NCBI GenBank assembly: GCA_018826255.1
Contig: JAHJZO010000029.1
Location: 1-54,587, forward strand
Origin: Patescibacteria group bacterium
GTDB lineage: Bacteria > Patescibacteriota > Minisyncoccia > UBA10092
Length of the DNA: 54,587 nt
Reading direction: 5' to 3'
A program made the position numbers and the translations under genes. Positions 13,137 to 32,613 of this stretch are shown piece after piece. Position 1 is the stretch's first letter, and each line of letters starts with the position of its first letter. A model generated the notes under the pieces. The model searched no databases. It was not told the DNA's origin and worked only from the letters and a program-made list of their open reading frames with translations.

Positions 13137-15596
13137 ATGTTACAATATTTATATAAAATAATAAATCAAAAAATCATTTGGGGTTTAATGATATTTTGCT
13201 TATTTTTTATTGGGCTTGGCACAATCCTCTGGCCCGTTTTAAGCGGGCAGAAAATATTTAATGACTACTATGTGACGAACTATGCCGTTGGCCAGACCGG
13301 CTATAATTTTTATAAAGATTTCGGCGATAGCTTGAGGCAGGGGCATTTGCAACTTTGGCTATCAAGCTATATGGGGGGCTTCCCCGTATATCTAACGCAA
13401 GCGGGCTTTTTTAATCCCATCGGGATGATTCTTTTTAGGTTTTTTGACTATATTTTTGCCTACAATTGGCTGACTTTTTTAAATTTCCTGTTTGCGGGAC
13501 TGGCAATGTATTGGTTTATAAGAAATTTAAAATTATCAAAATTAGCCGCTATTTTAGGAGGATTTGCTTGGGCGCTTTCTTTTAATAATATCCAATATGG
13601 GTCCATGCTGATTTTTAGTAATCTTTATTTCTTTATTCCGTTGTTTTTTGGCGCAATTCTAAAATTGTCAAGAGGGAATAAAAAATATCTTATTTTGGGC
13701 AGTTTGATCTCTGCCTATGGTTTAATAGCAGGTTTTACAACCTTAGTTTTTTACACGTTTATCACAGGCTTAGCTTGGGCTTTGTTTTTAGATTGGCCAA
13801 AATTTCTTGGAAAGACACTTCGCAATTATATTTTTATTTCTTTGATCGGAATAATCTTAGCGAGTATTTGGCTTTTGCCGGTTTTGAATTATTTGCCGCT
13901 TACCTTGCGGGGAGACGCGATAAGTTCAATAAATTTTTATGATTACTTAAAAATTGGCGATATTTTAAGATTTTTTTATCCTTTTATTCAATTGCCGGGA
14001 TTTGGCGGTTTTTCACTTTTAAGCGGCGTAGCCAATCTTTATGTCGGCATTATCCCGTTTTTATTGGCAATTATAGCTTTTTTTCTGTGGAAAAGGAACA
14101 AAATGATTGCATTTTGGTTAGGGCTTTTCATTTTTGCGTTTTCAATGCGACTTTGGTTTTTTCCGGTGTTCCAATGGCTTCAGTATTTGCCTTTATTCAA
14201 TAAATTCAGAGCGCCTTTCCATTGGTACAGTTTGGCATTTTTTTCTTTATCAGTGCTTTCTGCCTATGGTTTGGATTATTTAAAAGATATTAAAGAAACA
14301 GGGTGGTTCAAGAAGTTTATAAAAATTTTAGAAATTTTCGCGGTTTTAAATATTGCAATTGTTCTGATAATTAATACGGCAATAAAATTTTTTCGTATAA
14401 ATATTTTAAATACCATTTTTGAATATTTTGATAAATATTTATATTCAATCGCCAAAAAAAATCCGATTGATTATTATCATCAAATTATAACGCAGGTTTT
14501 TGATAAAAGCGCTCAAACTTTTTCTTTCTCTAATTACCATTTTTTAATTTCTTTTGTGTTCGTTTTAATAGGCATTTCGATTTTTGTTTTGTATCGGCGG
14601 GATTATATAAGTTTTGAAAAATTTAGAATATTGGCGGTAGCGATTGCAATTCTAAATTTGGTCTTTATCTGGCAGGGATATTATAATTTTACTTCCAAAA
14701 ATTTAATAACCAATCCGCCGGATACAGTTCAATTCATTAAAAAGCAAAAAGAGTCAGATAATTTTAGAGTTTTCAGATTTTATCCGCCGGAAATGTATAA
14801 GCAATTTGGACTTTATGATTTAAAAAATCCTTTGGATTACGATATAAAAACTTTGGGATTACAAATTAATCCCTATTGGATTGATGGGCTCGGCGGAGGA
14901 GAGCCGTTTAGGTCACAGAGAATTTCCGAAGTTCTTGATGAAATCGGTTATGAAGTTTCATCTATGTATGGTCCAGTTTGGATTAAATTCAATGATATTT
15001 CTCTTAACGACAAAACCTCCCGCTTTTCCTCTCCTCAAAACCTAAACCTCATGTCCATGCTTAATATCAAATACGTCTTTTCTTCATTTAAATTACTCAA
15101 CCTGAAACTTATTTATGAAACCACAGCCACGGAAAAAAACATTCCGGTATATGTCTACGAAAATCCCAACGCTATGCCAAGAATATATTTTGCCAATAGT
15201 GTTAAATATATTGACTCTCAGAATGCGTTTGAGGAGCTATTGAAAGTTAAGGATTTTCATGAGATGACGTTGATTGAAGCGACGAAATCCGACCGAAGTC
15301 CGACATCTGGGGATCTCGATGTCGGACTTCAAGAAGTGTCGGATTTTGATATGATAGAATTTAAATCAGAATCAGTAAAAATCAAAACTTCCGGCGATGG
15401 TGGATGGTTAATATATAGTGATGCTAATTTGCCGACCTGGGAAGCGTATATAGACGGCCAAAAAACAGACATTTACACAGCCAACTATCTGTTCAAGTCC
15501 ATATTTGTTCCGGAAGGGGAACATGAAGTGATATTTAAATATCCGGGTTTGTGGGGGCAGTTTAAATATGCGTTCGAAAGTATTTTTGAAAAATAG
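13137..15596 (+). CDS. YfhO-family polytopic membrane glycosyltransferase, paralog 2 (A)
   Basis: 819 aa multi-TM protein. C-terminus WEAYIDGQKTDIYTANYLFKSIFVPEGEHEVIFKYPG. Paralog of 16457..18856. Confidence 0.7.
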   Translation: MLQYLYKIINQKIIWGLMIFCLFFIGLGTILWPVLSGQKIFNDYYVTNYAVGQTGYNFYKDFGDSLRQGHLQLWLSSYMGGFPVYLTQAGFFNPIGMILFRFFDYIFAYNWLTFLNFLFAGLAMYWFIRNLKLSKLAAILGGFAWALSFNNIQYGSMLIFSNLYFFIPLFFGAILKLSRGNKKYLILGSLISAYGLIAGFTTLVFYTFITGLAWALFLDWPKFLGKTLRNYIFISLIGIILASIWLLPVLNYLPLTLRGDAISSINFYDYLKIGDILRFFYPFIQLPGFGGFSLLSGVANLYVGIIPFLLAIIAFFLWKRNKMIAFWLGLFIFAFSMRLWFFPVFQWLQYLPLFNKFRAPFHWYSLAFFSLSVLSAYGLDYLKDIKETGWFKKFIKILEIFAVLNIAIVLIINTAIKFFRINILNTIFEYFDKYLYSIAKKNPIDYYHQIITQVFDKSAQTFSFSNYHFLISFVFVLIGISIFVLYRRDYISFEKFRILAVAIAILNLVFIWQGYYNFTSKNLITNPPDTVQFIKKQKESDNFRVFRFYPPEMYKQFGLYDLKNPLDYDIKTLGLQINPYWIDGLGGGEPFRSQRISEVLDEIGYEVSSMYGPVWIKFNDISLNDKTSRFSSPQNLNLMSMLNIKYVFSSFKLLNLKLIYETTATEKNIPVYVYENPNAMPRIYFANSVKYIDSQNAFEELLKVKDFHEMTLIEATKSDRSPTSGDLDVGLQEVSDFDMIEFKSESVKIKTSGDGGWLIYSDANLPTWEAYIDGQKTDIYTANYLFKSIFVPEGEHEVIFKYPGLWGQFKYAFESIFEK
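15285..15346. repeat. nested in-frame palindrome inside the variable cassette of YfhO paralog A
   Basis: Inner arms GAAGTCCGACAT (15295-15306) / ATGTCGGACTTC (15319-15330). Outer arms AAATCCGAC (15285-15293) / GTCGGATTT (15338-15346). Confidence 0.8.
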
Positions 15597-15602
15597 ATAT
15601 TT

Positions 15603-16454
15603 ATGAAAAAAACAGAATTTTGTCCTATTTGTCGCAAAAAAAATCCAAGCGAATTTGATCATAAAAATGAATTTACTATATGGAAATGTTCCGGTTGTGA
15701 TTTATTATGGACACCAGATGTAAGTGAGGATATTTTAAGAGAATTTTATTCAAAGTCATATTTTAAAAGTCAGCATCATATTTTCGGTTATAGTAACTAT
15801 ATCGAAGATGAAGAAACTCTTCGTATTAATGCTCGCTACATATTATCCGAATTTCCGGAATTCAAAAATCGTTTACCTAAAATGCTTGATATCGGATGTG
15901 CTTACGGTTTTTTATTAGATGAGGCCAGGAAGTTGGGTTGGGGAACAGAAGGTCTGGAATTTAGCACTGAGGCAACGAACTATGCAGTCAATAAATTAAA
16001 TTTAAATGTATCTACTGGCTCTATTATGCAAGCCAATTTTCCTGAAAATAGTTTTGACATTGTTACAATGATAGGTGTTATAGAGCATCTAGCCGATCCT
16101 ATAGCCGCCATTCGCAAGATAAATAAAATATTAAAACTCGGCGGTTACCTTGCCATTACCACTATTAACACCAAGGGATTCGTGAGGTTATTTGATTTAA
16201 AGCCGCCAGAACATACTTTTTATTTTTCTGCCAAAAATTTATCTTTATTATTAAAAACGGAAAATTTTAAAGTAATGAAATCTCTTCCTTATTGGTGCTT
16301 TTATAATTTAAATGAGGCCTTGGATAGAGCTTTTAGATTGATTTTTAAATCTAGTAAAAGAATCGAGGAATTTTTAGGAAAATTCCCTTTTTTGAAATAT
16401 CCAGTAAAAGTGCCAACCAATGAAATGTTTGTATTGGCCCGAAAGATAAAATAA
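15603..16454 (+). CDS. class I SAM methyltransferase with N-terminal Zn-ribbon
   Basis: CPICRKK...CSGCDLLW and MLDIGCAYGFLL. Sits between the two YfhO paralogs. Confidence 0.75.
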   Translation: MKKTEFCPICRKKNPSEFDHKNEFTIWKCSGCDLLWTPDVSEDILREFYSKSYFKSQHHIFGYSNYIEDEETLRINARYILSEFPEFKNRLPKMLDIGCAYGFLLDEARKLGWGTEGLEFSTEATNYAVNKLNLNVSTGSIMQANFPENSFDIVTMIGVIEHLADPIAAIRKINKILKLGGYLAITTINTKGFVRLFDLKPPEHTFYFSAKNLSLLLKTENFKVMKSLPYWCFYNLNEALDRAFRLIFKSSKRIEEFLGKFPFLKYPVKVPTNEMFVLARKIK

Positions 16455-16456
16455 AT

Positions 16457-18856
16457 ATGAAAGTTATTTTTTTATTTTTAATTTGCTTGCTTGTGATTTT
16501 TGGGCCAATTTTATTTGGCGATAAAGTTATTGATGATTTTTTCGGTCTTGATCTGGCTCAATATAAATTTTTAACAGATTTTGGCGATAATTTGAAACAA
16601 AATTTGACACAACTTTGGTGGCCGGATTATCTCGGGGGTTTTCCGATTTATTTAACTCAAACCGGCCTTTTTACTCCTTTAGTTTTTATTTTATATAAAT
16701 TCTTTAGTGGTTTCGCAGTTTACAATTGGCTAACCTTTCTTAATTTCCTGATCGGAGGGCTTGCAATGTATTGGTTTGGTAGAAATTTATCGCTTTCAAA
16801 GATTGCTTCAGTTATTGTTGGCTTAACCTACGTTTTATCCCAAAATAATTTATATTGGGGTCCAACTTTAGTTTTCAGCAATGTTTATCCATTTATCCCT
16901 CTGTTTTTTCTGGCATTATTGAAAATATCAAGAAATGAAAAATTATGGTTTATTTGGGGGGGCTTGATTTCTGCTTATGGATTAGCGGCTGCAGAAATAC
17001 AAATCGTTTTTTACGTATTTGTTATAGGATTTTTTTGGGCTTTATTTTTATTTTGGCAATCAAAAAATCTAAAACCGATTTGGGGATATTTTAGCATTGG
17101 CATTGCCGGAACAATTCTGGCAAGTTTTTGGCTTTTGCCGGTTTTTAATTATCTGAAGTTAACCACTCGGAGCGGAGCTCTAAGCTTTGCCGATTTGACC
17201 TATGACTTTATGAGAATCGCTGACCCTTTGCGATTTTTCTACCCCTATATCCAGTTGCCGCAATTTACCGGTTTAGCGAGTTTAGGCCTCGTTCCCAATT
17301 ACTATATCGGCGCATTTGTTTTCTTTTTGGCAACGGCGGCGCTCTTTCTGGTTGGGAAGAATAAACTTATTGCTTTTTGGGCCGGTGTTGCCACCTTCGC
17401 CTTGGTGGTTAGAATTAAATGGACGGGGATTTTTTGGTTGCTTCATTTTTTACCCGGCTTTGACCGTTTCCGAGGAGTTTTTCATTGGGCATATATAAGC
17501 TCGTTTGCTTTGGCGCTTCTTGCCGGTTTCGCCGTGGATAATATGGAGCAGATTAAGGAATCAAAATATTTTAAAAAATTTGTTAACGCGCTGAAAATTT
17601 TTGGATGGACAAATATTATTTTAGTTGCAGTCATATTTTTAACCAGTTTGTTTCGTGCCAGAATCTTAAATAAAATTTTCCAATTCTTTGATACAAAGAT
17701 TTATCAGACAACAAGGCAATTTCCCTTAGAACATTACCATAATGTCATTACTTCGGAATTTGATAAATTTTTAAACGCTTTTAGCTTAAGCAATTATCAT
17801 TTTCTTATTTCATTTTTGAGCATTTTAATCGCAGTATTAATTTTTATTTTGTATCAAAGAAATAAAATTACTTTTGATAATTTCAAAAAATCAGCGTTTG
17901 TATTCACGTTCTTAAATTTGGTTTTAATCTGGCAAGGTTATTACAGTTTTATCCCGCAGAATAAAATCACCAATTATCCCGATACGGTAACTTTCATAAA
18001 AAATTACTATCATGGTGAAGAAAAATACAGATTTTTCAGATTTTATCCGCCGGAATCCTATCAAGAATTCGGAGTTTTCAATGTTAAGGATTGGTCTGAC
18101 TATAAATTAAAAACCTTAGAATCAAATATAGGCGTTTATTTTGATATGGATACTTTTGGCGGACTGGAGCCATTTATGTCGGCCCGCATTGCCGATATTT
18201 TTGATGAAATAGGATTTGAGAGGCCTACGGCGATTTCAGGCGAACCTTGGCTTCGCTCTACGAAGTTGTCTTTAACCGACAAAACCTCCCGCTTTTCCTC
18301 TCCTCAAAACCTAAATCTCATGTCCATGCTCAACATCAAATACGTCTTTTCTTCATTTAAATTACTCAACCTAAAATTAGTCTACGAAACCACAGCCACC
18401 GAAAAAAACATTCCGGTATATGTTTACGAAAATCCCGATGCTATGCCAAGGATATATTTTGCCAAGGAGGTTAAATATATTGATTCAGAAAGCGCTTTTG
18501 GCGAGCTATTAAAAGTTAAGGATTTTCATGAGGTGACGTTGATTGAATGCGAAAGAAATTGTCCCAAAATATGGATTTCCGACTTCAAAAATTCCCCGAA
18601 GTCGGAAATCAATATTTTCGAATCGCAACTTATTAAAATCAAAACTTCCGGCGATGGCGGATGGTTAATATACAGTGATGCCAATCTGCCTACTTGGGAG
18701 GCGTATATAGACGGCCAAAAAACGGATATTTACACAGCTAACTATTTATTTAAGTCCGTGTTTGTTCCGGAAGGGGGACATGAAGTGATATTCAAGTATC
18801 CCGGGTTGTGGGAACAAGATAAAGCGGCGCTCAAGCGCTTAATTTTTCGTTACTAA
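16457..18856 (+). CDS. YfhO-family polytopic membrane glycosyltransferase, paralog 3 (B)
   Basis: 799 aa. Colinear with paralog A and near-identical in two C-terminal tracts. Confidence 0.7.
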   Translation: MKVIFLFLICLLVIFGPILFGDKVIDDFFGLDLAQYKFLTDFGDNLKQNLTQLWWPDYLGGFPIYLTQTGLFTPLVFILYKFFSGFAVYNWLTFLNFLIGGLAMYWFGRNLSLSKIASVIVGLTYVLSQNNLYWGPTLVFSNVYPFIPLFFLALLKISRNEKLWFIWGGLISAYGLAAAEIQIVFYVFVIGFFWALFLFWQSKNLKPIWGYFSIGIAGTILASFWLLPVFNYLKLTTRSGALSFADLTYDFMRIADPLRFFYPYIQLPQFTGLASLGLVPNYYIGAFVFFLATAALFLVGKNKLIAFWAGVATFALVVRIKWTGIFWLLHFLPGFDRFRGVFHWAYISSFALALLAGFAVDNMEQIKESKYFKKFVNALKIFGWTNIILVAVIFLTSLFRARILNKIFQFFDTKIYQTTRQFPLEHYHNVITSEFDKFLNAFSLSNYHFLISFLSILIAVLIFILYQRNKITFDNFKKSAFVFTFLNLVLIWQGYYSFIPQNKITNYPDTVTFIKNYYHGEEKYRFFRFYPPESYQEFGVFNVKDWSDYKLKTLESNIGVYFDMDTFGGLEPFMSARIADIFDEIGFERPTAISGEPWLRSTKLSLTDKTSRFSSPQNLNLMSMLNIKYVFSSFKLLNLKLVYETTATEKNIPVYVYENPDAMPRIYFAKEVKYIDSESAFGELLKVKDFHEVTLIECERNCPKIWISDFKNSPKSEINIFESQLIKIKTSGDGGWLIYSDANLPTWEAYIDGQKTDIYTANYLFKSVFVPEGGHEVIFKYPGLWEQDKAALKRLIFRY
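18574..18610. repeat. in-frame 13-bp-stem palindrome inside the variable cassette of YfhO paralog B
   Basis: GATTTCCGACTTC (18574-18586), 11-nt loop, GAAGTCGGAAATC (18598-18610). Shares the TCCGAC/GTCGGA core with the paralog A palindrome. Confidence 0.8.
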
Positions 18857-19641: not shown

Positions 19642-21297
19642 TCATTTGGGACCGACGGTAAAAACATATAGGCCTTGAATGTCCATGATAGGAGAGACGT
19701 TTTTCATATTTTTTGCCAATAGTTCTTGCCGTATTTTTTCAACGTCAGATTTATTTTCGGCAATTAAGAAAGAATAAAATGGATACTCGGAACGATTTCT
19801 AAACCACCAAAAATCCACCAGCAAGTCATGGCTATTCGCAAAATCAATTTTTATCATTCCAAGATAATATTCAAAGTTAAATGTCGGAAACTGCGATTGC
19901 CAGATCCGATTTTTAGGAATAATTCTAAAAGCCATTTTTTCTTGGTTCGGAAAAAAAGTTTGAATTGCTTTGCTGAATTCAATTACTTCTTTTGGTGGAA
20001 CATTATTTGGCCATTCTTTCACATAACTCCAAGTATTAGAAAACTGATATGTCCACAACGCCATGATGATTAAAATCAGGAACCCGAATAAAAATCTTTC
20101 TTTTTGTCCCAGTGATTTCTTTTGCTGAAAAATTTCCAAAACAACAATAGTTGAAGTCCCGATGAGCAACCCCCAAAACGCGGCGGTTAAAACGCCCTGA
20201 TAAGGCCAGCCTCCGGTAGCATTGACAAAAAATGGCTGGATAATGGCGGCAACCGCCAAAATGACAATGATTTTGAAAAAATAATGATTTAAATTTAATT
20301 TTGTTCTCAATTTCCATAAAATTCCGATAATTAAAACAGCACTTCCCAATGTGGTGATTGTTTTTTTGAAAAAATAAAAAGTTTTTACGCTTGTCATCGT
20401 AACAAAAGGTCCCGTTAAACCAACGATAAAATTTTTAACGCCCCTGAATGTTCTCTCAGTATAAATATAACAAAAATCGCTTATCATATTATGCCAGCCC
20501 AAATACCATGTATTTTGGATAATTTGCAACATGAATCCTAAAATTGGCGCCGAAGCGAAAATCAGCCACTTTTTCCAAAGGAATTTTTTTAAAACAAAAA
20601 TATCAAATAAAATAAGATAGGCAAATATATAAAAAGTAGCGTCGTAGGAAGAAAGAGACAATATCAAATAGGCGAACCAGATGTATAGATTATACTTTTT
20701 GTATTTTTCAGGAATATTAAAATTTTGCCAAGCTTGAACGCTTAAATAAAGAATTAAAAAAATAAATAAAATAGTCCATGACTGGAAAGCGGAATCAGCA
20801 TAATTTAAAAAAGTAACTGAAAAACCATAATAAAAAACCGCAATGGTAGCCGTTGCCTTGTTTGAAACCGATTTGATAAACCAATAAAAAAATCCTAAAG
20901 CCAAAAGAGAAAGGAAAATAGAGAAAAATCTAAATAGAAATCTTTCTGTAATTCCGATTTTAGTAAGAATTGCATAGGGAGCAAGGAAAAATGGGGGATA
21001 ATGTGTGTAATGAATAGGGCCGCGAGTTAAAGAACCATCCATTGTGTCAATCGGGCGATTCCTGAATTCCGGTTCGTCCAAATAATGAATAAGTTTACTG
21101 TAAGGTTGCGGTATAAATAAAAAATAATTTTTGGCAAGCCCATCTTTTGCCCAATATTGGCTGGACATTAAAATTTGAGCCGAACCAAAGCCCCAACCAT
21201 CCCAACCGTTTTCATCCATTGCTTTAATACTCAAATAAGAACCCAAAATCAAAATAATTATTAAAATCGGCAGATATTTTTTCACAAAATCAATCAT
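19642..21297 (-). CDS. large polytopic membrane protein of unknown family (candidate GT-C transferase/polymerase)
   Basis: 551 aa, more than 10 hydrophobic spans, long first loop with acidic/aromatic residues (DENGWDGWGF). No family motif recognised by eye. Confidence 0.35.
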   Translation of the reverse strand: MIDFVKKYLPILIIILILGSYLSIKAMDENGWDGWGFGSAQILMSSQYWAKDGLAKNYFLFIPQPYSKLIHYLDEPEFRNRPIDTMDGSLTRGPIHYTHYPPFFLAPYAILTKIGITERFLFRFFSIFLSLLALGFFYWFIKSVSNKATATIAVFYYGFSVTFLNYADSAFQSWTILFIFLILYLSVQAWQNFNIPEKYKKYNLYIWFAYLILSLSSYDATFYIFAYLILFDIFVLKKFLWKKWLIFASAPILGFMLQIIQNTWYLGWHNMISDFCYIYTERTFRGVKNFIVGLTGPFVTMTSVKTFYFFKKTITTLGSAVLIIGILWKLRTKLNLNHYFFKIIVILAVAAIIQPFFVNATGGWPYQGVLTAAFWGLLIGTSTIVVLEIFQQKKSLGQKERFLFGFLILIIMALWTYQFSNTWSYVKEWPNNVPPKEVIEFSKAIQTFFPNQEKMAFRIIPKNRIWQSQFPTFNFEYYLGMIKIDFANSHDLLVDFWWFRNRSEYPFYSFLIAENKSDVEKIRQELLAKNMKNVSPIMDIQGLYVFTVGPK

Positions 21298-21315
21298 TTC
21301 CGAATTTTAATCGTT

Positions 21316-21344
21316 TTGACAATCTAAGTCAAAAGTCATATAGT
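21316..21344 (+). promoter_or_regulatory. sigma70-like promoter for the B12-radical SAM gene
   Basis: TTGACA (21316-21321), 17 nt, TATAGT (21339-21344). GGAGGTG RBS precedes ATG 21390. Confidence 0.55.
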
Positions 21345-21389
21345 TGTCTTCAATGTTCGTTCCCAATTAAATAAAACGGAGGTGAGAAA

Positions 21390-22979
21390 ATGTATCCGAA
21401 ACTTGATGAAAAAAAAGTTTGTTTTGTAACGCCGCCGTCGGCTTTTTCGGCCTATACCGGGACGGCTATTAATGCCGCGACACAGATTTATCCCTATTTG
21501 TCTTATCAGTATCTTTCGGCTTGGCTCAAAGAAAAAATTAAAATGGGGCTTAAGACAAGAGTTCTTGATATGGGGATTGCACCCGATCCATGGCCACTTT
21601 TGGGGCGCTTTCTGTTAAGGGAAAAGCCGAAATATTTAGGGCTGTCTTTCACAACGCCATTGTTTTATGAAGCCAAATTGATAGGCCTGATAGCTAAAGA
21701 TCTTCTTGGGCCGGAACTCGTTTTGATTCATGGTAATGTCCACGCATCAACACTATATGAAGAAAGTTTAACGGAAACAATGTGCGATGTTATTGTGAAG
21801 GGCGAAGGCGAGGTTACTTTCGGAGAAATTTGCCAGGGAAAGCCATTTAACGAAATTTTGGGCGTAATTTATCGCGCTGACGATTGGCGGAAACAACTCA
21901 TTTCTGCCGAGGAAATTATCAGCCGCCGAGTAAAAGGCGAGTCCTGTTATGATATCGCCAAAAATGCGGTTTTTTCGGAAGAGCCCGATATAAGAAGTAC
22001 CATATATTGGGGATCGCGTCCGTACATAGGAAGTTCAAAAAATAACAGCTTAGACGATTTGCCGTTTCCCGACATGGAACTTTACGATATTTATCGTTAT
22101 AAAAATCCGGATATCATTGCTCACGGTTATCCGATGCAGCAGGTTGAAACCAGCCGCGGCTGTCCCTTTACCTGCAATTTTTGCAGTTCTGAAGACACAT
22201 ACAGAGCAATGAGCCCGGATTATGTCATTGAGCTTTACAAATATCTCATAAAATGCGGGGTAAAAGAATTTCGCCTTATTGATGACCAGTTTCTTATTAA
22301 TATAAATAGAGGAAAGGTTATTGCGCAAAAAATGCTGGAAAATAATATAACCATTTCCTGGAATATGGCCAATGGCGTCAGGGCTGACCGAGTTGACAGG
22401 GAATTTCTGGAACTTGCCGCCAGATCGGGATGTTATCAAGTTGGAGGCGGTTATGAATCGGGAGACCAGGAGTCGCTGGATTCAATCCAGAAAAATCTTG
22501 ATATTGAAAAAAGCATTGAATGCATGAAAATGATTAAAGAATTAGATATTGAAACAGTGGGCTTTTTTATGTTTGGAACCCCAGGTGATACCGAAAGGTC
22601 GATGCAGAAAACCATTGATTTTGCCAAAAAACTGATGCCTGATTTTGCCAAAGTTACCGTTTGCATCCCGTTTCCGGATACCCGCCTTTATGCTGATTAT
22701 GAAAAGCGAGGGTTAATATTAAGTAAAAAATGGGATGATTATAACATTCATAAAGCGGCGAGATTATTCAAACACCCGAACGGTTTAACGCCGGAAATTC
22801 TGGAAAAATTTTATTGGAAATTTTATCGGGAGTTTTATCTGAATCCGAGATATCTTTGGTGGAAGGGCCGTAAAAGTTTGAGGGATGGAACTTTTTTCAG
22901 AAACGCGAATCTGGCAAAAAAACTTTTCTTTGCCAAAATAATACCCGATAGCCCGTTGAATTGGGCGTTAAAAAAATAG
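21390..22979 (+). CDS. class B (cobalamin-binding domain) radical SAM enzyme
   Basis: N-terminal B12-binding-like domain, then RGCPFTCNFCSS (CxxxCxxC). Appears monocistronic, sitting between its own promoter and terminator. Confidence 0.75.
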   Translation: MYPKLDEKKVCFVTPPSAFSAYTGTAINAATQIYPYLSYQYLSAWLKEKIKMGLKTRVLDMGIAPDPWPLLGRFLLREKPKYLGLSFTTPLFYEAKLIGLIAKDLLGPELVLIHGNVHASTLYEESLTETMCDVIVKGEGEVTFGEICQGKPFNEILGVIYRADDWRKQLISAEEIISRRVKGESCYDIAKNAVFSEEPDIRSTIYWGSRPYIGSSKNNSLDDLPFPDMELYDIYRYKNPDIIAHGYPMQQVETSRGCPFTCNFCSSEDTYRAMSPDYVIELYKYLIKCGVKEFRLIDDQFLININRGKVIAQKMLENNITISWNMANGVRADRVDREFLELAARSGCYQVGGGYESGDQESLDSIQKNLDIEKSIECMKMIKELDIETVGFFMFGTPGDTERSMQKTIDFAKKLMPDFAKVTVCIPFPDTRLYADYEKRGLILSKKWDDYNIHKAARLFKHPNGLTPEILEKFYWKFYREFYLNPRYLWWKGRKSLRDGTFFRNANLAKKLFFAKIIPDSPLNWALKK

Positions 22980-22981
22980 AA

Positions 22982-23006
22982 AAATGCCCGCATTACGCGG
23001 GCATTT
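22982..23006. terminator. bidirectional hairpin terminator between convergent genes
   Basis: AAATGCCCGC-ATTAC-GCGGGCATTT. Confidence 0.7.
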
Positions 23007-23706
23007 AAATTATTCTGGCTAAATTAATTATGGTTTTTCCGATGAGAAAAACATTTTTCCAATTGATAACATTTGATTTTCCGTATACTCTTTCTTGATT
23101 ACAGAAGGGGACCTCCACATATGAAATTTTTTTCTTAACCAATTGAATCAGTATCTCTGCCATATAAGCGGGGCTGTCGGTGGTCATTGAAACCGTTTTC
23201 AATATATCGCGTTTAAAAAAACATGGGCCGTTAAAATATTTCAGATGTAAGCCGAAAAGAGCATTAAATGTCATAGTATAACTTCGTGACAACATTGAAC
23301 GAAAAAACGTGCGCTGTTGAGGATTGGCGACATAAGGAATGATGACATCGGTTTTCCCGATTTGTTCAAAAATTTTTTGTATACTTTCCAAAATTATCTG
23401 GTTATCTCCCGGAAACCAGCCGACATAATCTTTAACGGCGGCGCGGATTCCCGTCCTGATATTGTACCCCAATCCTTTTGGCTTGGGGTTGGACATCACT
23501 TTAATGCATCTGTTGTTGAGTGACAGTTCGGCGGCAACTTTTTCCGTTTCATCCGTTGAGCCGTCATTTATAATAATTATTTCATAATCGGAAAGTTCTT
23601 GATTTTCCAAAGCCAATAAAACATTTTGAATCGTTTTTTCAATGTTACCGGCTTCGTTTAAAGCGGGGATAATTATTGACACGGAATTATTCATGTCTTT
23701 AATCAT
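23005..23706 (-). CDS. GT2 polyprenol-phosphate glycosyltransferase-like (paralog of 32614..33333)
   Basis: VSIIIPALNEAGNIEKT, IIIINDGSTDET. Colinear similarity with the 32614 GT2. Confidence 0.75.
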   Translation of the reverse strand: MIKDMNNSVSIIIPALNEAGNIEKTIQNVLLALENQELSDYEIIIINDGSTDETEKVAAELSLNNRCIKVMSNPKPKGLGYNIRTGIRAAVKDYVGWFPGDNQIILESIQKIFEQIGKTDVIIPYVANPQQRTFFRSMLSRSYTMTFNALFGLHLKYFNGPCFFKRDILKTVSMTTDSPAYMAEILIQLVKKKISYVEVPFCNQERVYGKSNVINWKNVFLIGKTIINLARII

Positions 23707-23819: not shown

Positions 23820-24839
23820 ATGCAAACTTTAGTTACCGGTGGAAAGGGTTTTATCGGCAGTCATTTGATTGAAAGATTATTGAACGATGGTCACGAGGTT
23901 GTATGTCTGGATTTGGAAGAAGCGTCCAATCGAAATATTGAATGCTTTCTCCATAATGAAGGTTTCGTTCTAGTCAATAGGAATATTGTTTCTCCTTTTT
24001 CTGTTAGAAATATTAAAGACATTTTACGCGATTACGAAATTGATATAGTTTTCCATTTGGCGGGTCTTGCGGACATTGTTCCGTCAATACAAAATCCTAC
24101 GGAATATTTCGCGACCAATGTCATAGGGACGCTCAATATACTTGAAGCGGCTCGCGAATATGGAAAACTCCAAAAATTTATCTATACTTCTTCATCGTCT
24201 ATTTACGGAATTCCTGAATTTTTTGAAATTCCAACTTCCGAAGAAATTCCGATCAAACCGCAATATCCCTACGCCGAAACAAAATATCAGGGGGAAAGAT
24301 GGGTAAGTCATTATGGCCAAATTTACAAATTGCCCACGATTTCTTTGCGTCTGTTTAATGTCTATGGACCGCGGTCGCGGACAACCGGGACTTACGGCGC
24401 GGTATTCGGGACATTTTTGGCGCAGAAAATAAACGGCAAACCATTCACAGTTGTCGGCGACGGGAGGCAATCAAGGGATTTCACTTTCGTCACGGATGTT
24501 TGCGACGCTTTTGTAAGAGCGGCGGAATCCAAGATATCAGGAGAAGTATTTAATGTCGGCTCCGGAAAACCGCAAACAATTCTGCGATTGGTTGAACTTT
24601 TGGGAGGCGATATTATTCACATCCCCAAAAGGCCGGGCGAACCGGATAAAACTTGCGCCGATATATTGAAGATTAAAAACACGCTCGGTTGGACGCCGAA
24701 AGTTTCGTTTGAGGAAGGCGTGAAAATTATGCTGGATAATATTGATTACTGGAGAAACGCGCCCGTATGGACGCCCAATTCAATCTGGGAAGCGACCAAA
24801 GATTGGTTTGAATTTTTGGGCGGCAAGGAGGGAAAATGA
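23820..24839 (+). CDS. extended-SDR NAD-dependent nucleotide-sugar epimerase/dehydratase
   Basis: VTGGKGFIGSHL Rossmann motif, YAETK catalytic Tyr/Lys. GGGAGGG RBS. Confidence 0.8.
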   Translation: MQTLVTGGKGFIGSHLIERLLNDGHEVVCLDLEEASNRNIECFLHNEGFVLVNRNIVSPFSVRNIKDILRDYEIDIVFHLAGLADIVPSIQNPTEYFATNVIGTLNILEAAREYGKLQKFIYTSSSSIYGIPEFFEIPTSEEIPIKPQYPYAETKYQGERWVSHYGQIYKLPTISLRLFNVYGPRSRTTGTYGAVFGTFLAQKINGKPFTVVGDGRQSRDFTFVTDVCDAFVRAAESKISGEVFNVGSGKPQTILRLVELLGGDIIHIPKRPGEPDKTCADILKIKNTLGWTPKVSFEEGVKIMLDNIDYWRNAPVWTPNSIWEATKDWFEFLGGKEGK

Positions 24840-25474
24840 CAACACTGGCGAAAAAGACTTATCAGGAATTGAGAAATCTCGGCGTTGATAAAGCGGATGA
24901 TTATTTCAGCGCGCTGACCGGTATCTTGAAAAAAGTGCGCGTAACTTCATGCGCGCTCGAAACGGGAAACGCGCTGGAAATAAATTATGCCATTAATATA
25001 GTCGCCAATTGCTTGCGCGGCGCCCTTTTGGACAAGAAAAAATTTATTGCTGTTGGCAATGGTGGTTCGGCGGCAATCGCAATGCACGCGCTTGTCGATT
25101 ACGCCAACGCCGGCGGTTTGCAAACAATGGATTTAATGAATCCGGCATTAGTTACCTGCATGGCAAATGATTATGGGTATGAAAAGGTTTTTGCCAAAAA
25201 CATAGAAATGCATGTTGAAGAAAGCGATGTTTTGTTTGCCATCTCAAGTTCGGGCCAATCGCCTAATATTCTTTCAGCTTGCGACGCGGCAGACATAGGG
25301 TGCAAAATAATTACCTTTTCCGGCTTCAGCCCGGAAAATCCTTTGAGGAAATTAGGAAGTATAAATTTTTACGTTCCTTCTAGCCATTATGGGTTTGTGG
25401 AACTGGCCCATCAGATACTTATCCATTGTATTTTGGATTTTTACCTAAAAAAACTGATCAAAGAAAGAGGTTGA
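24836..25474 (+). CDS. gmhA: SIS-domain sedoheptulose-7-phosphate isomerase-like (GmhA-like)
   Basis: VGNGGSAAIAMH and AISSSGQSPNIL align with the GmhA pattern CGNGGS...STSGNS. About 210 aa. Confidence 0.65.
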   Translation: MTTLAKKTYQELRNLGVDKADDYFSALTGILKKVRVTSCALETGNALEINYAINIVANCLRGALLDKKKFIAVGNGGSAAIAMHALVDYANAGGLQTMDLMNPALVTCMANDYGYEKVFAKNIEMHVEESDVLFAISSSGQSPNILSACDAADIGCKIITFSGFSPENPLRKLGSINFYVPSSHYGFVELAHQILIHCILDFYLKKLIKERG

Positions 25475-25479
25475 TTCTC

Positions 25480-26583
25480 ATGAATAGAATGATTTTAGAC
25501 GGCCATAAACTATTGTGGCACAGAGAAAGGGTTGAAGCGTGGCATGGGGGCGAGAGAATAGCGCCGATTACCATTGATTGCGCCTTAACGAGAAGATGCA
25601 CTTATCGATGCGCCTATTGTTATGGTCAGTTGCAGGCAAATGATGAAAGGAAAATGACCAAAGATATTATTTTTCGTTTTCTTGATGACGCGGCCGAAAT
25701 TAGCGTTAAAGCAATTAGTTTTGTCAGTGACGGAGAGAGTACATGTTCTCCCCACCTATATGACGCTATTTTGCGCGGTAAGAAAAATGGTCTTGATATA
25801 GCGTTGGGAACTAACGGCTATTTGCTGAAAGAGGAAAATTTAGAGGAGATTCTTGCTTGCCTTACTTATCTCCGTTTCAATATCTCTGCCGCGGAACCAT
25901 CTAGTTACGCGAGAATAATGGGGTGCAAGGAAGAATGTTTTTTGGTGGTCCGCGATAATGTCAAAAAATGCGTAGAAATTAAAAAGAAAAATAATCTTGA
26001 CGTTACTATTGGCTTGCAAATGGTTCTTTTACCTAGTTTTAAGGACCAAATAATTCCTTTGGCGGAACTTGGTAAGGAGTTGGGCGTAGATTACTTTGTC
26101 ATCAAACATTGTAGTGATGACGAGAGTCATACCCTTGGGATTGATTATTCAAAATATTTTGGGTTGACCGGATTGTTGGAAGAGGCAGAGTCATATTCGG
26201 AAAGCGATTATCTGGTGAAAGCTAAATGGTCCAAAATTTTAAGCAGGGGCGAGAGAAAATATTCTCAATGTTATGGACCGGCTTTCATCATGCAGTTTTC
26301 CGGTTCCGGCCTGGTCGCTCCTTGCGGCATGCTGTTTAACAGAAAATATAAAAAATATCACATAGGAAATATCGCGAATGTTTCTTTTAAGAAAATATGG
26401 CAAAGTGAAAGATACTGGGAAGTGATTAATTTGATTGGCTCGGAAAAATTTGATGCCAGAACAATGTGCGGGTCGCTATGCCTTCAGCACAAGGCAAATG
26501 AATTTCTGTGGGATTTGAAAAACGGAAAAGCAGTGTTAAGAGATACACATGGGGAACTACCCATGCATATAAACTTTGTTTAA
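25480..26583 (+). CDS. radical SAM enzyme with Cys-containing C-terminal region
   Basis: CTYRCAYC cluster motif. Additional C-terminal cysteines (QCYGP...APCG...MCGSLC). ATG 25480 follows AGAAAGAGG. Confidence 0.75.
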   Translation: MNRMILDGHKLLWHRERVEAWHGGERIAPITIDCALTRRCTYRCAYCYGQLQANDERKMTKDIIFRFLDDAAEISVKAISFVSDGESTCSPHLYDAILRGKKNGLDIALGTNGYLLKEENLEEILACLTYLRFNISAAEPSSYARIMGCKEECFLVVRDNVKKCVEIKKKNNLDVTIGLQMVLLPSFKDQIIPLAELGKELGVDYFVIKHCSDDESHTLGIDYSKYFGLTGLLEEAESYSESDYLVKAKWSKILSRGERKYSQCYGPAFIMQFSGSGLVAPCGMLFNRKYKKYHIGNIANVSFKKIWQSERYWEVINLIGSEKFDARTMCGSLCLQHKANEFLWDLKNGKAVLRDTHGELPMHINFV

Positions 26584-26604
26584 CGGGCGCTTGACGCCCG
26601 TTTT
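26582..26604 (+). terminator. rho-independent terminator
   Basis: AACGGGCG-CTTGA-CGCCCGTT followed by TT. Confidence 0.7.
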
Positions 26605-26677
26605 AATTTGTTGTATGTTTCGGGCATAAAATTTTTTGGCACTTTTAAAAAATAATAACGAAGGAGGAGATACCATA

Positions 26678-28231
26678 ATGGCCCTGAATCGCAAGATAAA
26701 GACATTGGAAGAATTTATTGTTGAATTGAAAAAGTTGAGAAATTCCGGTAAAAAAATCATACACTGCCACGGAGTATTTGACTTGGTGCATATCGGCCAC
26801 ATCCGCCATTTTTCCATCGCCAAGGCCTTGGGGGATATTTTAGTGGTTACAATCACTCCGGACCAATACGTGAACAAGGGCCCAGGCAGGCCGGTATTTA
26901 CGGAGGCTCTCCGCGCCGAATATATTGCGGCGCTTGAGCCGGTTGATTACGTAATAATCAACAATTGGCCGACGGCGGTTGAAATAATAAAGGCGATTAA
27001 ACCGGATGTTTATGTTAAAGGCCAAGATTACGCGGACTCTGAAAAAGACGAGACCGGAGGGATACACTGTGAAAGAGAAGCGGTTGAATCGGCGGGCGGG
27101 AAGATCCACTTTACCGGCGATATTACTTTTAGTTCCAGCTCGCTTCTTAACGAATATTTTGATATTTATCCCAGAGAAGCCCAGGATTTTTTAGCCGGTT
27201 TTCGGAAAAAATATTCAGCCGAAAAAGTCATTGAAATGCTGAAAAGTTTGAAATCAATGAAAGTTTTGATTATTGGTGAAACGATTCTGGATAAATATCT
27301 TTTTATGGCTCCGATGATGGGCAGGCCGCTAAAGGGGAATCACATTGCCGCCAGAACTATTGGGGAAGAAACCCACGCCGGAGGTATTCTGGCCTGCGCC
27401 AATCACTTGGCGAATTTTTGCGGCAATGTTGATTTGATAACAGCCATTGGTAATAACGGAAATGAAGAATTCGTCAGGGCGCATCTCAAATCAAATATAA
27501 ATCTCCAGTTATTTTATCATGATGTCGCGCCGACAATTGTTAAAAGGCGATTCATAGAAACTTCTTTCAGGTCCAAATTATTCGAAGAATATATTCTTGA
27601 CGACAGGCCGTCGCCGGAGCTAGATGAGAAAATAATGAGCTATCTGCGCGGCATTCCAAGAGACCTCGTTTATGATTTGATTCTTGTTTTGGATTACGGC
27701 CACGGGCTGATCACTCCACGGCAAATAGATTTTCTCTGCAACCAGAGATTTGATTTTTTGGCGGTAAATGCTCAAACAAACACCGCCAATATGGGATTTA
27801 ATTTGATAACAAAATATCCCAGAGCCAACTATTTTTGCCTGGATGATATAGAACTGAGATTGGCTTTTCACGACAATTACAGTGAATCGGCGAAAATTAT
27901 AACGCGTTTAGCGGATAGGGCTTCAAGCTCCAGAGCTTATATGTCCAGGGCCGTCGCGGTTACATTGGGGCATTTAGGGTCAATGGTCTATGACGCGAAA
28001 AAAAATGAACTCTGCAAGGCGCCGGTGTTGTCCCAGAAAATCGTTGATACCACCGGAGCCGGAGATGCGTTTTTCGCGTTAACCGCTCCCTGCGTCGCCA
28101 AGGGATTTTCCATGGATTTAGTGGCTTTTATAGGCAACGCGGCTGGAGCTTTGGCCGTTGGCTATTTAGGCAACCAGAAATCAATTGAAGCGACTCCGTT
28201 TTTCAAATTCATAACGGCTTTGCTTAAATAA
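26678..28231 (+). CDS. bifunctional nucleotidyltransferase (N-terminal) / PfkB sugar kinase (C-terminal); HldE/RfaE-like with reversed domain order
   Basis: N-terminal HGVFDLVHIGHIRHF (HxGH cytidylyl/adenylyltransferase motif). C-terminal KVLIIGETILDKY and DTTGAGDAF (PfkB). GGAGGAG RBS. Confidence 0.7.
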   Translation: MALNRKIKTLEEFIVELKKLRNSGKKIIHCHGVFDLVHIGHIRHFSIAKALGDILVVTITPDQYVNKGPGRPVFTEALRAEYIAALEPVDYVIINNWPTAVEIIKAIKPDVYVKGQDYADSEKDETGGIHCEREAVESAGGKIHFTGDITFSSSSLLNEYFDIYPREAQDFLAGFRKKYSAEKVIEMLKSLKSMKVLIIGETILDKYLFMAPMMGRPLKGNHIAARTIGEETHAGGILACANHLANFCGNVDLITAIGNNGNEEFVRAHLKSNINLQLFYHDVAPTIVKRRFIETSFRSKLFEEYILDDRPSPELDEKIMSYLRGIPRDLVYDLILVLDYGHGLITPRQIDFLCNQRFDFLAVNAQTNTANMGFNLITKYPRANYFCLDDIELRLAFHDNYSESAKIITRLADRASSSRAYMSRAVAVTLGHLGSMVYDAKKNELCKAPVLSQKIVDTTGAGDAFFALTAPCVAKGFSMDLVAFIGNAAGALAVGYLGNQKSIEATPFFKFITALLK

Positions 28232-28236
28232 GAAAC

Positions 28237-28260
28237 AACCCCGCAAGCTTGCGGGGTTTT
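28237..28260 (+). terminator. rho-independent terminator (CCCCGCAAGCTTGCGGGG type)
   Basis: Perfect 18-nt palindrome at 28239-28256 followed by TTTT. Confidence 0.8.
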
Positions 28261-28323
28261 AAGTTTTGTAGTATAGTAACCGCCGATCTAGAGGTCTTTA
28301 AAAACTTAATTATGGAGGTGAAA

Positions 28324-29340
28324 ATGTCTAAGAAAATCTTAGTTATCGGAGGCGCCGGTTATGTCGGCAGCGCTCTGGTGCCAAAATTGTTGGACGCGGG
28401 GCACTATGTCCGTGTTTTGGACACATTTTGGTTCGGCGATGGTGTATTTAATGATTGGATTTTGAAAAATAGCCGAACAAGCATAAACAGATTGGGATTT
28501 GTTAAGGGCGATATTCGTAATTGTGATTTGGAACAAGCGATGAGAGACGTAGATTGCGTTATTCATCTGGCTTGCATTTCAAACGATCCGAGTTTTGAAC
28601 TCAATCGTGATTTAGGCCGTTCAATAAATTATGACGCGTTTTTGAAAGTTATCATAGCGGCGCAAGAGAGTAAAATCGGGCGTTTTATTTTTGCTTCTTC
28701 CAGTTCCGTTTATGGCGTCAAAAATACGCCGAACGTTACGGAAGATATGTGCCTTGAACCGCTGACGGATTATTCAAAATACAAAGCGTTTTGTGAAATG
28801 GAGCTTCAAATGATTCCAACCGAAAAATTGCCCTGGGTAATTATTCGCCCGGCGACGGTCTGCGGCTACGCGCCGCGCATGAGGTTGGATTTATCGGTTA
28901 ATATCCTGACGATGGCGGCTTTAACAAAGGGAAAAATCATGGTTTTCGGCGGATCACAGATCCGTCCCAATATCCATATTGAAGACATGACGGATTTGTA
29001 TGTTCGGCTGGTTAACGAAGAGGACGATAGAATAATCGGTCGGACATTCAATGCCGGCGGGAGTAATCTCAGCATTGAGACAATCGCCGAGCTGGTAAAG
29101 AAAATCATTGAACAATGCATGGCGAAGAAAATCGAAATTGAAAAAGTACCGACCTGGGATTTGCGTTCTTATCATGTTTCGTCGGCAAAGATAGAACGCC
29201 AGCTTGGCTGGCAAACCATTCGCGATGTACCGGATGCCGTTGTTCATTTGATGAAAGCATTCAACGCCGGATTGATTCCGAATCCCGACGACCCGAAATA
29301 CAGCAATATCAAAACAATGAAAGTGTTGAAAATCCAATAA
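28324..29340 (+). CDS. extended-SDR NAD-dependent nucleotide-sugar epimerase/dehydratase
   Basis: VIGGAGYVGSAL, YSKYK. ATG 28324 follows GGAGGTG. Confidence 0.75.
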   Translation: MSKKILVIGGAGYVGSALVPKLLDAGHYVRVLDTFWFGDGVFNDWILKNSRTSINRLGFVKGDIRNCDLEQAMRDVDCVIHLACISNDPSFELNRDLGRSINYDAFLKVIIAAQESKIGRFIFASSSSVYGVKNTPNVTEDMCLEPLTDYSKYKAFCEMELQMIPTEKLPWVIIRPATVCGYAPRMRLDLSVNILTMAALTKGKIMVFGGSQIRPNIHIEDMTDLYVRLVNEEDDRIIGRTFNAGGSNLSIETIAELVKKIIEQCMAKKIEIEKVPTWDLRSYHVSSAKIERQLGWQTIRDVPDAVVHLMKAFNAGLIPNPDDPKYSNIKTMKVLKIQ

Positions 29341-29351
29341 AGGAGGATGAA

Positions 29352-30482
29352 ATGGGCGAAGCAAAAGTTCACTATAATTATTTAGACAAGCAATTTAAGA
29401 TTGGAGGGCCTCTGGTAAAGCAGATTCTTGAAGATATTGAAGGACTTGTCAAAACCGGCCAGTTTACTCTCGGCCCGCAAGTCGCGGAGTTCGAAAAAGA
29501 GTTTGCGAAAATTTGCGGCGTCAAGTACGCGATCGGCATCAATTCGGGAACGGACGCTCTGATTCTCATCTTGAGAGCCCTGGGCATTGGATTGGGCGAT
29601 GAAGTCATCACCCAACCGAATAGTTTTATCGCTACGGCAAATGCCATCAGATTTGTCGGCGCCAAACCGGTTTTCGTCGACGTGACTGATGATTACATGA
29701 TTAACCATCTTCAGATCGAAAAGGCCGTTACGTCCAAGACGAAAGCCATATTGCCGGTTCACTTGACCGGGAATCCGGCGGGCATTGTCTGCGCCTCTGA
29801 AATTGCAAAAAGACGCAATCTTTTTCTGATAGAGGATGCGTGTCAGGCCATCGATTCATCAGTTAATGGAAAAATGGCCGGAAGCTGGGGGATCGCTGGG
29901 GCGTTCAGCCTCCACCCTTTGAAAAATCTCAATGTATGGGGCGATGGCGGAATGGTTACCACCGATGACGGCGAGCTGGCAATGAAGATTACCTTAATGC
30001 GCAATCATGGGCTGGAAACAAGGGATGATTGCGTGATGGTTGCCGGCAACTGCCGATTGCACACCATTCAGGCCGTCATCGGTTTGCGATTAATTACGGA
30101 CGTTCCCAGGATTTCCAGCAGCAGAATTATGAACGCCACGATGTATAGCAAGTATTTGGCCGATGTTGATGGGGTAAAGCTTCCTCCGCGCTTTGCCAAT
30201 GTGCGGCAGGTGTACCACACATTTGTCATTCAGGTTAAGAAGCGCGACGAACTGCAAAAATTTCTGGAACGCAACGGAGTTGAAGTTAAAGTTCATTACC
30301 CGATTCCGATTCATCTGCAGAAACCGTATCTGGAAATGGGATACAAAAAGGGCGATTTTCCCGATTGCGAAAAGCAATCAGAAAATATTATTTCTCTGCC
30401 CATTCATCAGTACTTATCGGCATCGCAGATTATGAAAGTAATTAATTTAATCAGAAAATTTTACGGCGCGAAAACCGTATAA
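29352..30482 (+). CDS. DegT/DnrJ/EryC1/StrS-family PLP-dependent sugar aminotransferase
   Basis: GINSGTDALIL. FSLHPLKNL carries the PLP-binding Lys. Confidence 0.85.
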   Translation: MGEAKVHYNYLDKQFKIGGPLVKQILEDIEGLVKTGQFTLGPQVAEFEKEFAKICGVKYAIGINSGTDALILILRALGIGLGDEVITQPNSFIATANAIRFVGAKPVFVDVTDDYMINHLQIEKAVTSKTKAILPVHLTGNPAGIVCASEIAKRRNLFLIEDACQAIDSSVNGKMAGSWGIAGAFSLHPLKNLNVWGDGGMVTTDDGELAMKITLMRNHGLETRDDCVMVAGNCRLHTIQAVIGLRLITDVPRISSSRIMNATMYSKYLADVDGVKLPPRFANVRQVYHTFVIQVKKRDELQKFLERNGVEVKVHYPIPIHLQKPYLEMGYKKGDFPDCEKQSENIISLPIHQYLSASQIMKVINLIRKFYGAKTV

Positions 30483-30490
30483 CAAACAAT

Positions 30491-30518
30491 TCCCCCGCCA
30501 TGGCGGGGGACTTTTTTT
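30491..30518 (+). terminator. rho-independent terminator
   Basis: TCCCCCGCCATGGCGGGGGA followed by CTTTTTTT. Confidence 0.8.
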
Positions 30519-30596
30519 GTTTGACAATAGTTATAATGTGTATTATTCTCCGAACACTTGAAATTCTTTGAAAATTTAATAAAAAGGAGGTAGCAG

Positions 30597-32545: not shown

Positions 32546-32551
32546 TTTACG

Positions 32552-32575
32552 CCCCCGCAAGCTTGCGGGGGTTTT
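32552..32575 (+). terminator. rho-independent terminator (CCCCGCAAGCTTGCGGGG type)
   Basis: CCCCCGCAAGCTTGCGGGGG followed by TTTT. Confidence 0.8.
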
Positions 32576-32613
32576 AATTTGTTTTTTATAAATTTAATGT
32601 TAAAATTTTTCAC

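Follow-up and report, generated by a model that had tools for sequence, protein, structure and literature searches.

A class-B-type radical SAM enzyme that travels with a putative heptose-tailoring cassette in a glycan island of a Patescibacteria bacterium

Our analysis concerns a radical S-adenosylmethionine (SAM) gene, coding for a protein of 529 amino acids (aa), in a 54,587-nt stretch of DNA from a Patescibacteria group bacterium (GCA_018826255.1, contig JAHJZO010000029.1, positions 1 to 54,587; hereafter the window). The product of this gene is predicted to be a class-B-type radical SAM enzyme of an uncharacterised family, and its orthologues in several phyla are encoded next to a recurring set of sugar-nucleotide genes. 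Class-B enzymes typically methylate unactivated carbon or phosphorus centres. A role of this one in tailoring the glycan of the cassette is likely. Our more specific proposal, to which we give an even chance, is that it would be a cytoplasmic enzyme at the core of a cassette that would make a modified amino sugar derived from a heptose, and that it would carry out a cobalamin-dependent C-methylation. Taken by itself, the assignment of the reaction as C-methylation falls just short of even odds.

The open reading frame and its cluster motif CPFTCNFC, described in an initial annotation of the sequence, were both found, the motif in the form RGCPFTCNFC. Its cysteines C258, C262 and C265 are invariant across 65 homologues, and the Pfam profile Radical_SAM (PF04055) matched residues 252-412 with 70.4 bits (gathering score 29.5); motif and match together place the protein in the radical SAM superfamily. 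In an AlphaFold2 model built with the 65 homologues (predicted local distance difference test, pLDDT, 93.4; predicted template modelling score, pTM, 0.92), five helices are interspersed with five N-terminal strands (residues 6-14, 55-60, 80-86, 111-115 and 134-136), and the radical SAM barrel comes next. Thus, the B12-type N-domain that had been suggested is borne out by the predicted fold, a five-strand/five-helix Rossmann domain placed N-terminally to the barrel, which is the layout of the OxsB/TsrM/TokK/QCMT class (2026 review, PMC12931638). Comparing the model with the PDB by Foldseek, we obtained full-length matches to AprD4 (TM 0.67/0.77, E 1e-20) and then to MgmA, TsrM, CysS, OxsB and TokK. 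AprD4 (PDB 6fd2) was also the top match in sequence searches of the PDB (E 4.5e-13, and 2e-36 by profile).

To relate the protein to curated families we used NCBIfam profile scores, which stood proxy for a sequence-similarity network against Fom3, GenK and TsrM. Among the families scored, the protein reached no curated cut-off. HpnJ ranked first (TIGR03471, 147.2 bits vs a cut-off of 577.6), then BchE (TIGR02026, 114.6 vs 481) and the PhpK family (107), with moderate scores for the ApyD and ladderane families; with 65.2 bits (cut-off 500), the AprD4 family of diol dehydratases (NF033070) ranked behind nine other class-B families. None of the equivalogs HpnJ, BchE and AprD4 was therefore accepted as an assignment. 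Nineteen close relatives gave the same ranking, with HpnJ best (best E 8.8e-72) and BchE next.

Homologues are numerous: at E <= 0.001 there were 40,050 cluster representatives, and 2,489 still passed E <= 1e-30. We searched related loci with an alignment of 19 family sequences and surveyed 80 genome loci by tblastn. In a maximum-likelihood tree the protein fell in a seven-row clade of Patescibacteria type, itself nested in a 22-row multi-phylum clade of orthologues; both clades have a support of 100 in the Shimodaira-Hasegawa-like approximate likelihood ratio test (SH-aLRT). The orthologues are 36-75% identical to the protein studied here and span at least nine phyla. Cassette genes were found around orthologues in eight named groups: Patescibacteria, Planctomycetota, Elusimicrobiota, Chloroflexota, Verrucomicrobiota, Bdellovibrionota, Omnitrophota and Gammaproteobacteria. 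Of the 21 other loci in the 22-row clade, 12-13 had cassette genes, vs none of about 56 loci outside the clade; with related rows and several short contigs, these counts are descriptive only. The window, too, has the cassette genes co-located with a member of the orthologue clade. Within the taxonomic family of the bacterium the gene is an accessory one: it was found in one of eleven genomes of the same family (74% identity) and in none of the five genomes of the same genus that were searched. As its distribution reads from sequence, the radical SAM family is a horizontally mobile component of the cassette. No paper describing the family or the heptose cassette was found in our literature searches.

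Two observations belong to the tree itself. The linker subdomain, confidently modelled in the 529-aa protein, has 55-61 residues in the Patescibacteria-type clade and 19 in all other family members, a difference of about 36-42 residues. A long-linker orthologue with 50% identity on a contig labelled Elusimicrobiota (locus L024, JBGFSC010000007.1) lies inside this clade and reflects either a recent transfer or a mis-binned contig.

The window as a whole is a glycan island, which also holds a Wzx-like flippase, class-I methyltransferases and short-chain dehydrogenase/reductase (SDR) type dehydratases and epimerases. The cassette downstream of the gene (Table 1) includes a fusion resembling HldE in which the order of the domains is inverted. 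Across phyla, its dehydratase-like SDR is 56-67% identical and its SPASM radical SAM protein 54-73%. At several loci a small glycosyltransferase of family 2 (GT2) directly adjoins the orthologue. On a Verrucomicrobial contig the order is SDR, two DegT genes, E1 alpha, E1 beta, an unknown gene, SPASM radical SAM, the orthologue, GT2 and the HldE-like gene, and on two other contigs a YfhO-like gene ends 3 nt ahead of the orthologue, which is followed by a gene of the GT9 heptosyltransferase family. The link to glycans drawn in the initial annotation thus held across the homologues, which are consistently found with glycan genes and not with tRNA or lipid genes. The 20 neighbouring genes scanned were all glycan genes, with no hopanoid gene among them, and neither a precursor peptide nor a lipid pathway was seen in the orthologue contexts examined. 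As had been noted, the island holds two more radical SAM genes, of SPASM and of class-B type. The latter product (B12-binding 40.6 bits, Radical_SAM 84.3 bits) was considered as the cassette orthologue and rejected, its identity being 27-28% vs 41% for the 529-aa protein.

That the enzyme actually uses cobalamin we regard as fairly probable, judging from its N-domain. The family profile aligns over this domain with cobalamin-binding OxsB, TsrM, TokK and CysS (from profile positions 32, 30, 71 and 61, respectively), and partly with MgmA, whereas with AprD4 the radical SAM part alone aligns. Residues D60, P80, G115, H118 and E139 are invariant in the family and T88-T89-P90, GGxH(A)(S/T) and GEGE nearly so; since overall identity in the family is 30-40%, this conservation suggests a working cofactor domain rather than a vestigial one. 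The protein itself carries G-G/N-x-H-A-S and G-E-G-E; its G-N at 115-116, rare in a family that usually has G-G, is found also in cobalamin-bound OxsB. The missing DxHxxG motif is compatible with the base-off, His-off mode in which all solved class-B enzymes hold cobalamin (PMC12931638). The fold alone does not settle the matter, because AprD4 and ArsL have Rossmann-like domains, lie within the class-B sequence network and bind no cobalamin (PMC12931638).

In the mechanism we propose, a [4Fe-4S] cluster at C258/C262/C265 would reductively cleave SAM, and the resulting 5'-deoxyadenosyl radical would abstract a hydrogen from an unactivated sugar carbon. The N-terminal Rossmann domain would hold cobalamin base-off; a second SAM would methylate this cobalamin, which would then pass the methyl group on to that carbon. 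As to the substrate and the order of the steps, we infer that the enzyme would act before export, on a nucleoside diphosphate (NDP)-heptose derivative or on the product of the neighbouring small GT2, a sugar linked to polyprenyl phosphate. Once finished, the sugar would be moved outside, where GT-C-fold transferases (the 551-aa neighbour and the YfhO-like proteins) would attach it to a surface acceptor.

Several results weigh against this proposal. The match to the Pfam B12-binding profile (PF02310, residues 34-147) reached 22.7-25.6 bits, under the gathering score of 32.1; among the homologues, nearly all carry precomputed PF02310 matches. The best structural and PDB sequence match, AprD4, is a cobalamin-free enzyme, and HpnJ and BchE, which score best among the curated families, do not methylate (PMC9204698). 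All homologues retrieved come from metagenomes (bins), and none is informatively named or characterised. About eight of the 21 orthologue loci, several of them on short contigs, have no cassette genes. Finally, in the draft genome (536,896 bp in 49 contigs, 96.8% complete) we detected no PduO-type or CobA-type adenosyltransferase, no BtuC/FecCD permease or energy-coupling factor (ECF) T component, and no CobS for salvage.

The ranking of HpnJ and then BchE for the protein and for all 19 close family members raises the possibility that the enzyme depends on cobalamin and does not methylate. As in HpnJ, OxsB and BchE, cobalamin would act as an electron sink or radical partner after hydrogen abstraction, and the amino sugar would be rearranged, ring-contracted or cyclised. 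HpnJ, of the hopanoid hpnI-hpnJ-hpnK genes, has the same two-domain layout and acts on lipid-linked glucosamine made by the GT2 HpnI; it thus works downstream of a GT2 on a lipid-attached amino sugar, and here, in parallel, the B12-type radical SAM enzyme is paired with an aminotransferase and a small GT2. We nevertheless consider this reading unlikely. The protein is not an HpnJ orthologue, since the family scores a quarter to under half of the HpnJ cut-off, and the neighbours scanned include no hopanoid genes. The pathway considered here starts from a heptose nucleotide, and ring contraction of the HpnJ type would destroy the glycosyl donor: a carbocycle bound to polyprenyl phosphate or to a nucleotide could no longer serve the GT2 and GT-C transferases, and a SAM-dependent enzyme could not act after export. 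It is by this reasoning that we prefer methylation to ring contraction. Nor does similarity to HpnJ fix the chemistry, because HpnJ co-clusters in a published sequence network with Fom3 and MoeK5 (PMC9204698), which are true methylases.

An enzyme without cobalamin would explain other parts of the data. In this case the Rossmann domain would be structural, the protein would be a radical 1,2-diol dehydratase like AprD4 of the apramycin pathway (or something similar), and a cassette SDR would finish the deoxygenation. AprD4 tops both the Foldseek and the PDB sequence searches, and as the closest solved structure it shares the Rossmann-like N-domain and barrel. Its substrate is an amino sugar and its reaction depends on a partner SDR, and the cassette has several SDRs; B12-free proteins do sit inside class-B networks (PMC12931638), and the problem of cofactor supply would be removed. 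We hold such cobalamin-free dehydration followed by SDR reduction to be a serious rival, albeit an improbable one. The N-domain of AprD4, which binds no cobalamin, is not aligned with the family profile and those of four cobalamin-binding enzymes are; the AprD4 family profile scores far under its cut-off; and the N-domain motifs are invariant across phyla. The top rank of AprD4 also reflects in part which structures have been solved, because the PDB holds no HpnJ or BchE structure. We consider it quite unlikely that the substrate is something other than a sugar: a membrane lipid or the polyprenyl carrier, or else a protein or peptide to which the glycan is attached, the reaction being for example methylation of a lipid tail or C-methylation of a peptide. 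Enzymes that modify lipids and peptides do occur in the class (HpnP/R, the ladderane enzyme, PoyC and ApyD), two of them from the families with moderate scores, and the gene lies between two membrane-associated transferases. Against this, the constant neighbours across phyla are nucleotide-sugar enzymes, not lipid-synthesis genes or precursor genes of ribosomally synthesised and post-translationally modified peptides (RiPPs), and the contexts examined gave no sign of a precursor peptide or a lipid pathway.

The source of the cofactor had been raised as a question in the initial annotation. The question is valid, given the import and salvage genes that were not found; it is not, however, specific to this gene. 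The genome encodes NrdJ, a B12-dependent class II ribonucleotide reductase (C16:6285-8723, locus L099; 611 bits vs a cut-off of 400), and as neither NrdD nor NrdB was detected in the 96.8%-complete draft, NrdJ is its sole detectable ribonucleotide reductase. That the genome encodes such a B12 user also speaks for our proposal. NrdJ is above cut-off in 34 of 61 relatives and is present in at least 10 of the 11 other genomes of the same family. Because NrdJ depends on B12 and is common among relatives, the cofactor question is wider than the radical SAM gene. Beside NrdJ we found housekeeping genes only and no B12 transporter, and no cobalamin riboswitch was found in the draft genome; weak matches to CbiQ (14 bits) and CobA (15 bits) were dismissed as noise. 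The lineage appears to depend on cobalamin acquired by an unrecognised route, although failure to detect a gene in a draft does not show that it is missing. Domain searches found seven radical SAM genes in the genome, plus a fragment on contig C31. Four genes are of class-B type, two in the window and two outside it: one at C10:11637-13127 (L001:385-1875, minus strand) and one at C31:2-715 (L003), which is cut by the contig end and adjoins an IS110-family transposase gene. An essential NrdJ, needed for DNA precursors, together with four B12-type radical enzymes makes the B12 dependence of cells of the Candidate Phyla Radiation (CPR) concrete; as neither import nor salvage genes were found, it bears on what such cells obtain from their hosts. 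A bolder version of our proposal, which we regard as unlikely, is that the enzyme would be a cobalamin-dependent C-alkylase acting on a polyprenyl-phosphate-linked heptose-derived sugar, between the GT2 and an outward-facing GT-C transferase, with finished cobalamin taken from the host by an undescribed route. Such a route would follow if this version were true, given a symbiont-type genome of 537 kb with four class-B genes, NrdJ as the sole reductase, and no known import or salvage genes.

In its immediate setting the gene resembles three-component glycosylation systems (GtrB/GtrA/GtrV, ArnC/ArnEF/ArnT and CsbB/GtcA/YfhO), being flanked by a small GT2 and by GT-C/YfhO-like proteins. No GtrA-type flippase turned up in the window, although no search aimed at GtrA was made. 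We know of no radical SAM tailoring enzyme in the known three-component systems of extracytoplasmic glycosylation, and a C-alkylase on a polyprenyl-phosphate sugar, if real, would be a step new to them. In enzyme class and expected chemistry, our protein is likened by description, not by sequence, to GenK/GenD1, MoeK5 and Fom3, which act on a sugar, on a sugar linked to a lipid and on an alcohol linked to a nucleotide, respectively; these belong to antibiotic pathways of Actinobacteria, not to surface-glycan cassettes. For GenK, MoeK5 and Fom3, C-methylation of sugar, lipid-linked sugar and nucleotide-linked substrates, respectively, has been described (PMC9204698), which gives the proposed reaction a precedent. 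OxsB, TsrM, TokK, CysS and MgmA/QCMT share the full-length fold and an N-domain alignment that includes the G-G/N-x-H and GEGE regions; they are 14-17% identical to the protein, and their substrates are unrelated (a nucleotide for OxsB, tryptophan for TsrM, a carbapenem for TokK, a thiol ester for CysS and protein glutamine for MgmA/QCMT). To our knowledge, class-B enzymes that act on sugars are few and all belong to antibiotic pathways. The family described here would extend them to surface glycans of uncultured bacteria and archaea of many phyla and would help define an undescribed higher-carbon sugar. Surface glycans of the ultra-small CPR bacteria probably mediate attachment to the host.

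The coordinates of the gene, its signals and its neighbours are collected in Table 1. The gap of 92 nt between the gene and its divergent upstream neighbour holds the promoter-like sites and a GGAGG, and the near-consensus promoter TTGACA-17-TATAGT of the initial annotation was recovered there. In the window, six sites match the sigma-70 consensus at 11/12 positions or better, vs 1.85 +/- 1.4 in Markov shuffles, and they mostly lie just upstream of gene starts; because of this excess and this position they are probably real promoters. The five further 11/12 sites are at 23676, 35708, 42915 and 45017 on the plus strand and at 52072 on the minus strand. A hairpin with a stem of 10-11 bp, including six GC pairs, occupies the entire 25-nt gap to the convergent GT2 gene. 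The hairpin reported as a bidirectional terminator does exist, and bidirectionality was backed in part only, because the minus strand has a good run of T residues (TTCTATTTTT) and the plus strand a weak one (AAATTATTCT); the hairpin is predicted to terminate the GT2 gene better than the radical SAM gene. The gene had also been called stand-alone. In terms of transcription this stood, as the arrangement of signals predicts a separate transcription unit; functionally the gene is not alone, since it belongs to the core of a cassette that is conserved in different phyla.

Table 1. Positions in the window of the radical SAM gene, its predicted signals and protein domains, and neighbouring genes.
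Feature	Position	Strand	Remarks
Radical SAM coding sequence	21390..22979	+	529 aa, stop codon included
Putative sigma-70-like promoter of the radical SAM gene, TTGACA-17-TATAGT	21316..21344	+	11/12 consensus positions
Promoter-like site for the divergent GT-C gene	21332..21304	-	10/12; overlaps the radical SAM promoter
Shine-Dalgarno sequence GGAGGTGAG	21378..21386	+	Strong; GGAGG at 21378..21382, 7 nt before ATG
GC-rich hairpin AAATGCCCGC-loop-GCGGGCATTT	22982..23006		Between the convergent radical SAM and GT2 genes
N-terminal Rossmann (B12-binding-type) domain	21390..21869	+	aa 1-160; five strands/five helices
Linker subdomain	21870..22043	+	aa ~161-218
Radical SAM partial TIM-barrel core	22122..22709	+	aa ~245-440
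CxxxCxxC [4Fe-4S]/SAM motif	22161..22184	+	C258-P-F-T-C262-N-F-C265
C-terminal helical domain	22710..22976	+	aa ~441-529; invariant H462-P-N motif
Two YfhO-like GT-C membrane proteins	13137..18856	+	Class-I methyltransferase between them
GT-C-fold membrane glycosyltransferase (predicted)	19642..21297	-	551 aa; divergent neighbour
GT2	23005..23706	-	233 aa; convergent neighbour
Co-travelling cassette	23820..33333	+	Dehydratase-like SDR, GmhA-like SIS (isomerase), SPASM radical SAM, inverted HldE-like enzyme, SDR, DegT aminotransferase, thiamine diphosphate (ThDP) E1 alpha/beta, second small GT2
SPASM radical SAM gene	25426/25480..26583	+	Within the cassette
Second class-B-type radical SAM gene	33408..34682	+	Paralogue, 27% identical to the 529-aa protein

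The two genes flanking the radical SAM gene code for putative glycosyltransferases. The divergent 551-aa protein had no Pfam or NCBIfam match; its model (pLDDT 88.9) gave 28 top Foldseek matches that are all GT-C proteins (AglB/STT3, ALG9/12, ArnT and PglB). Its family was found in Patescibacteria-type records only, a few members carry PMT_2, and W32-D33 near the first outer loop are invariant. A 532-aa membrane protein beside the Verrucomicrobial orthologue was tried as its counterpart and rejected, as BLASTP found no similarity, so the pairing of the radical SAM enzyme with the 551-aa protein is limited to close relatives. In these the upstream block of YfhO-like and methyltransferase genes is also kept beside the radical SAM gene. 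Along its whole length, the 233-aa GT2 is similar to synthases of polyprenyl-phosphate sugars (ArnC, AglJ, PpgS and Dol-P-hexose transferase), with scores below the cut-offs.

Other Patescibacteria differ from the window downstream of the orthologue. At three loci (L007:6176-7259, L008:9667-10750 and L009:9699-10828), two to three small convergent genes, among them genes for pentapeptide-repeat proteins, follow it directly. The window lacks such genes, and there the hairpin is directly adjoined by the GT2 gene. On the first of these three loci, a Paceibacterota contig whose orthologue is 73% identical, a bAvd-like gene and a reverse transcriptase gene (RVT_1) at L007:11554-14132 adjoin another B12-type radical SAM gene, of 638 aa, a few kb from the orthologue. 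Such a pair is typical of diversity-generating retroelements.

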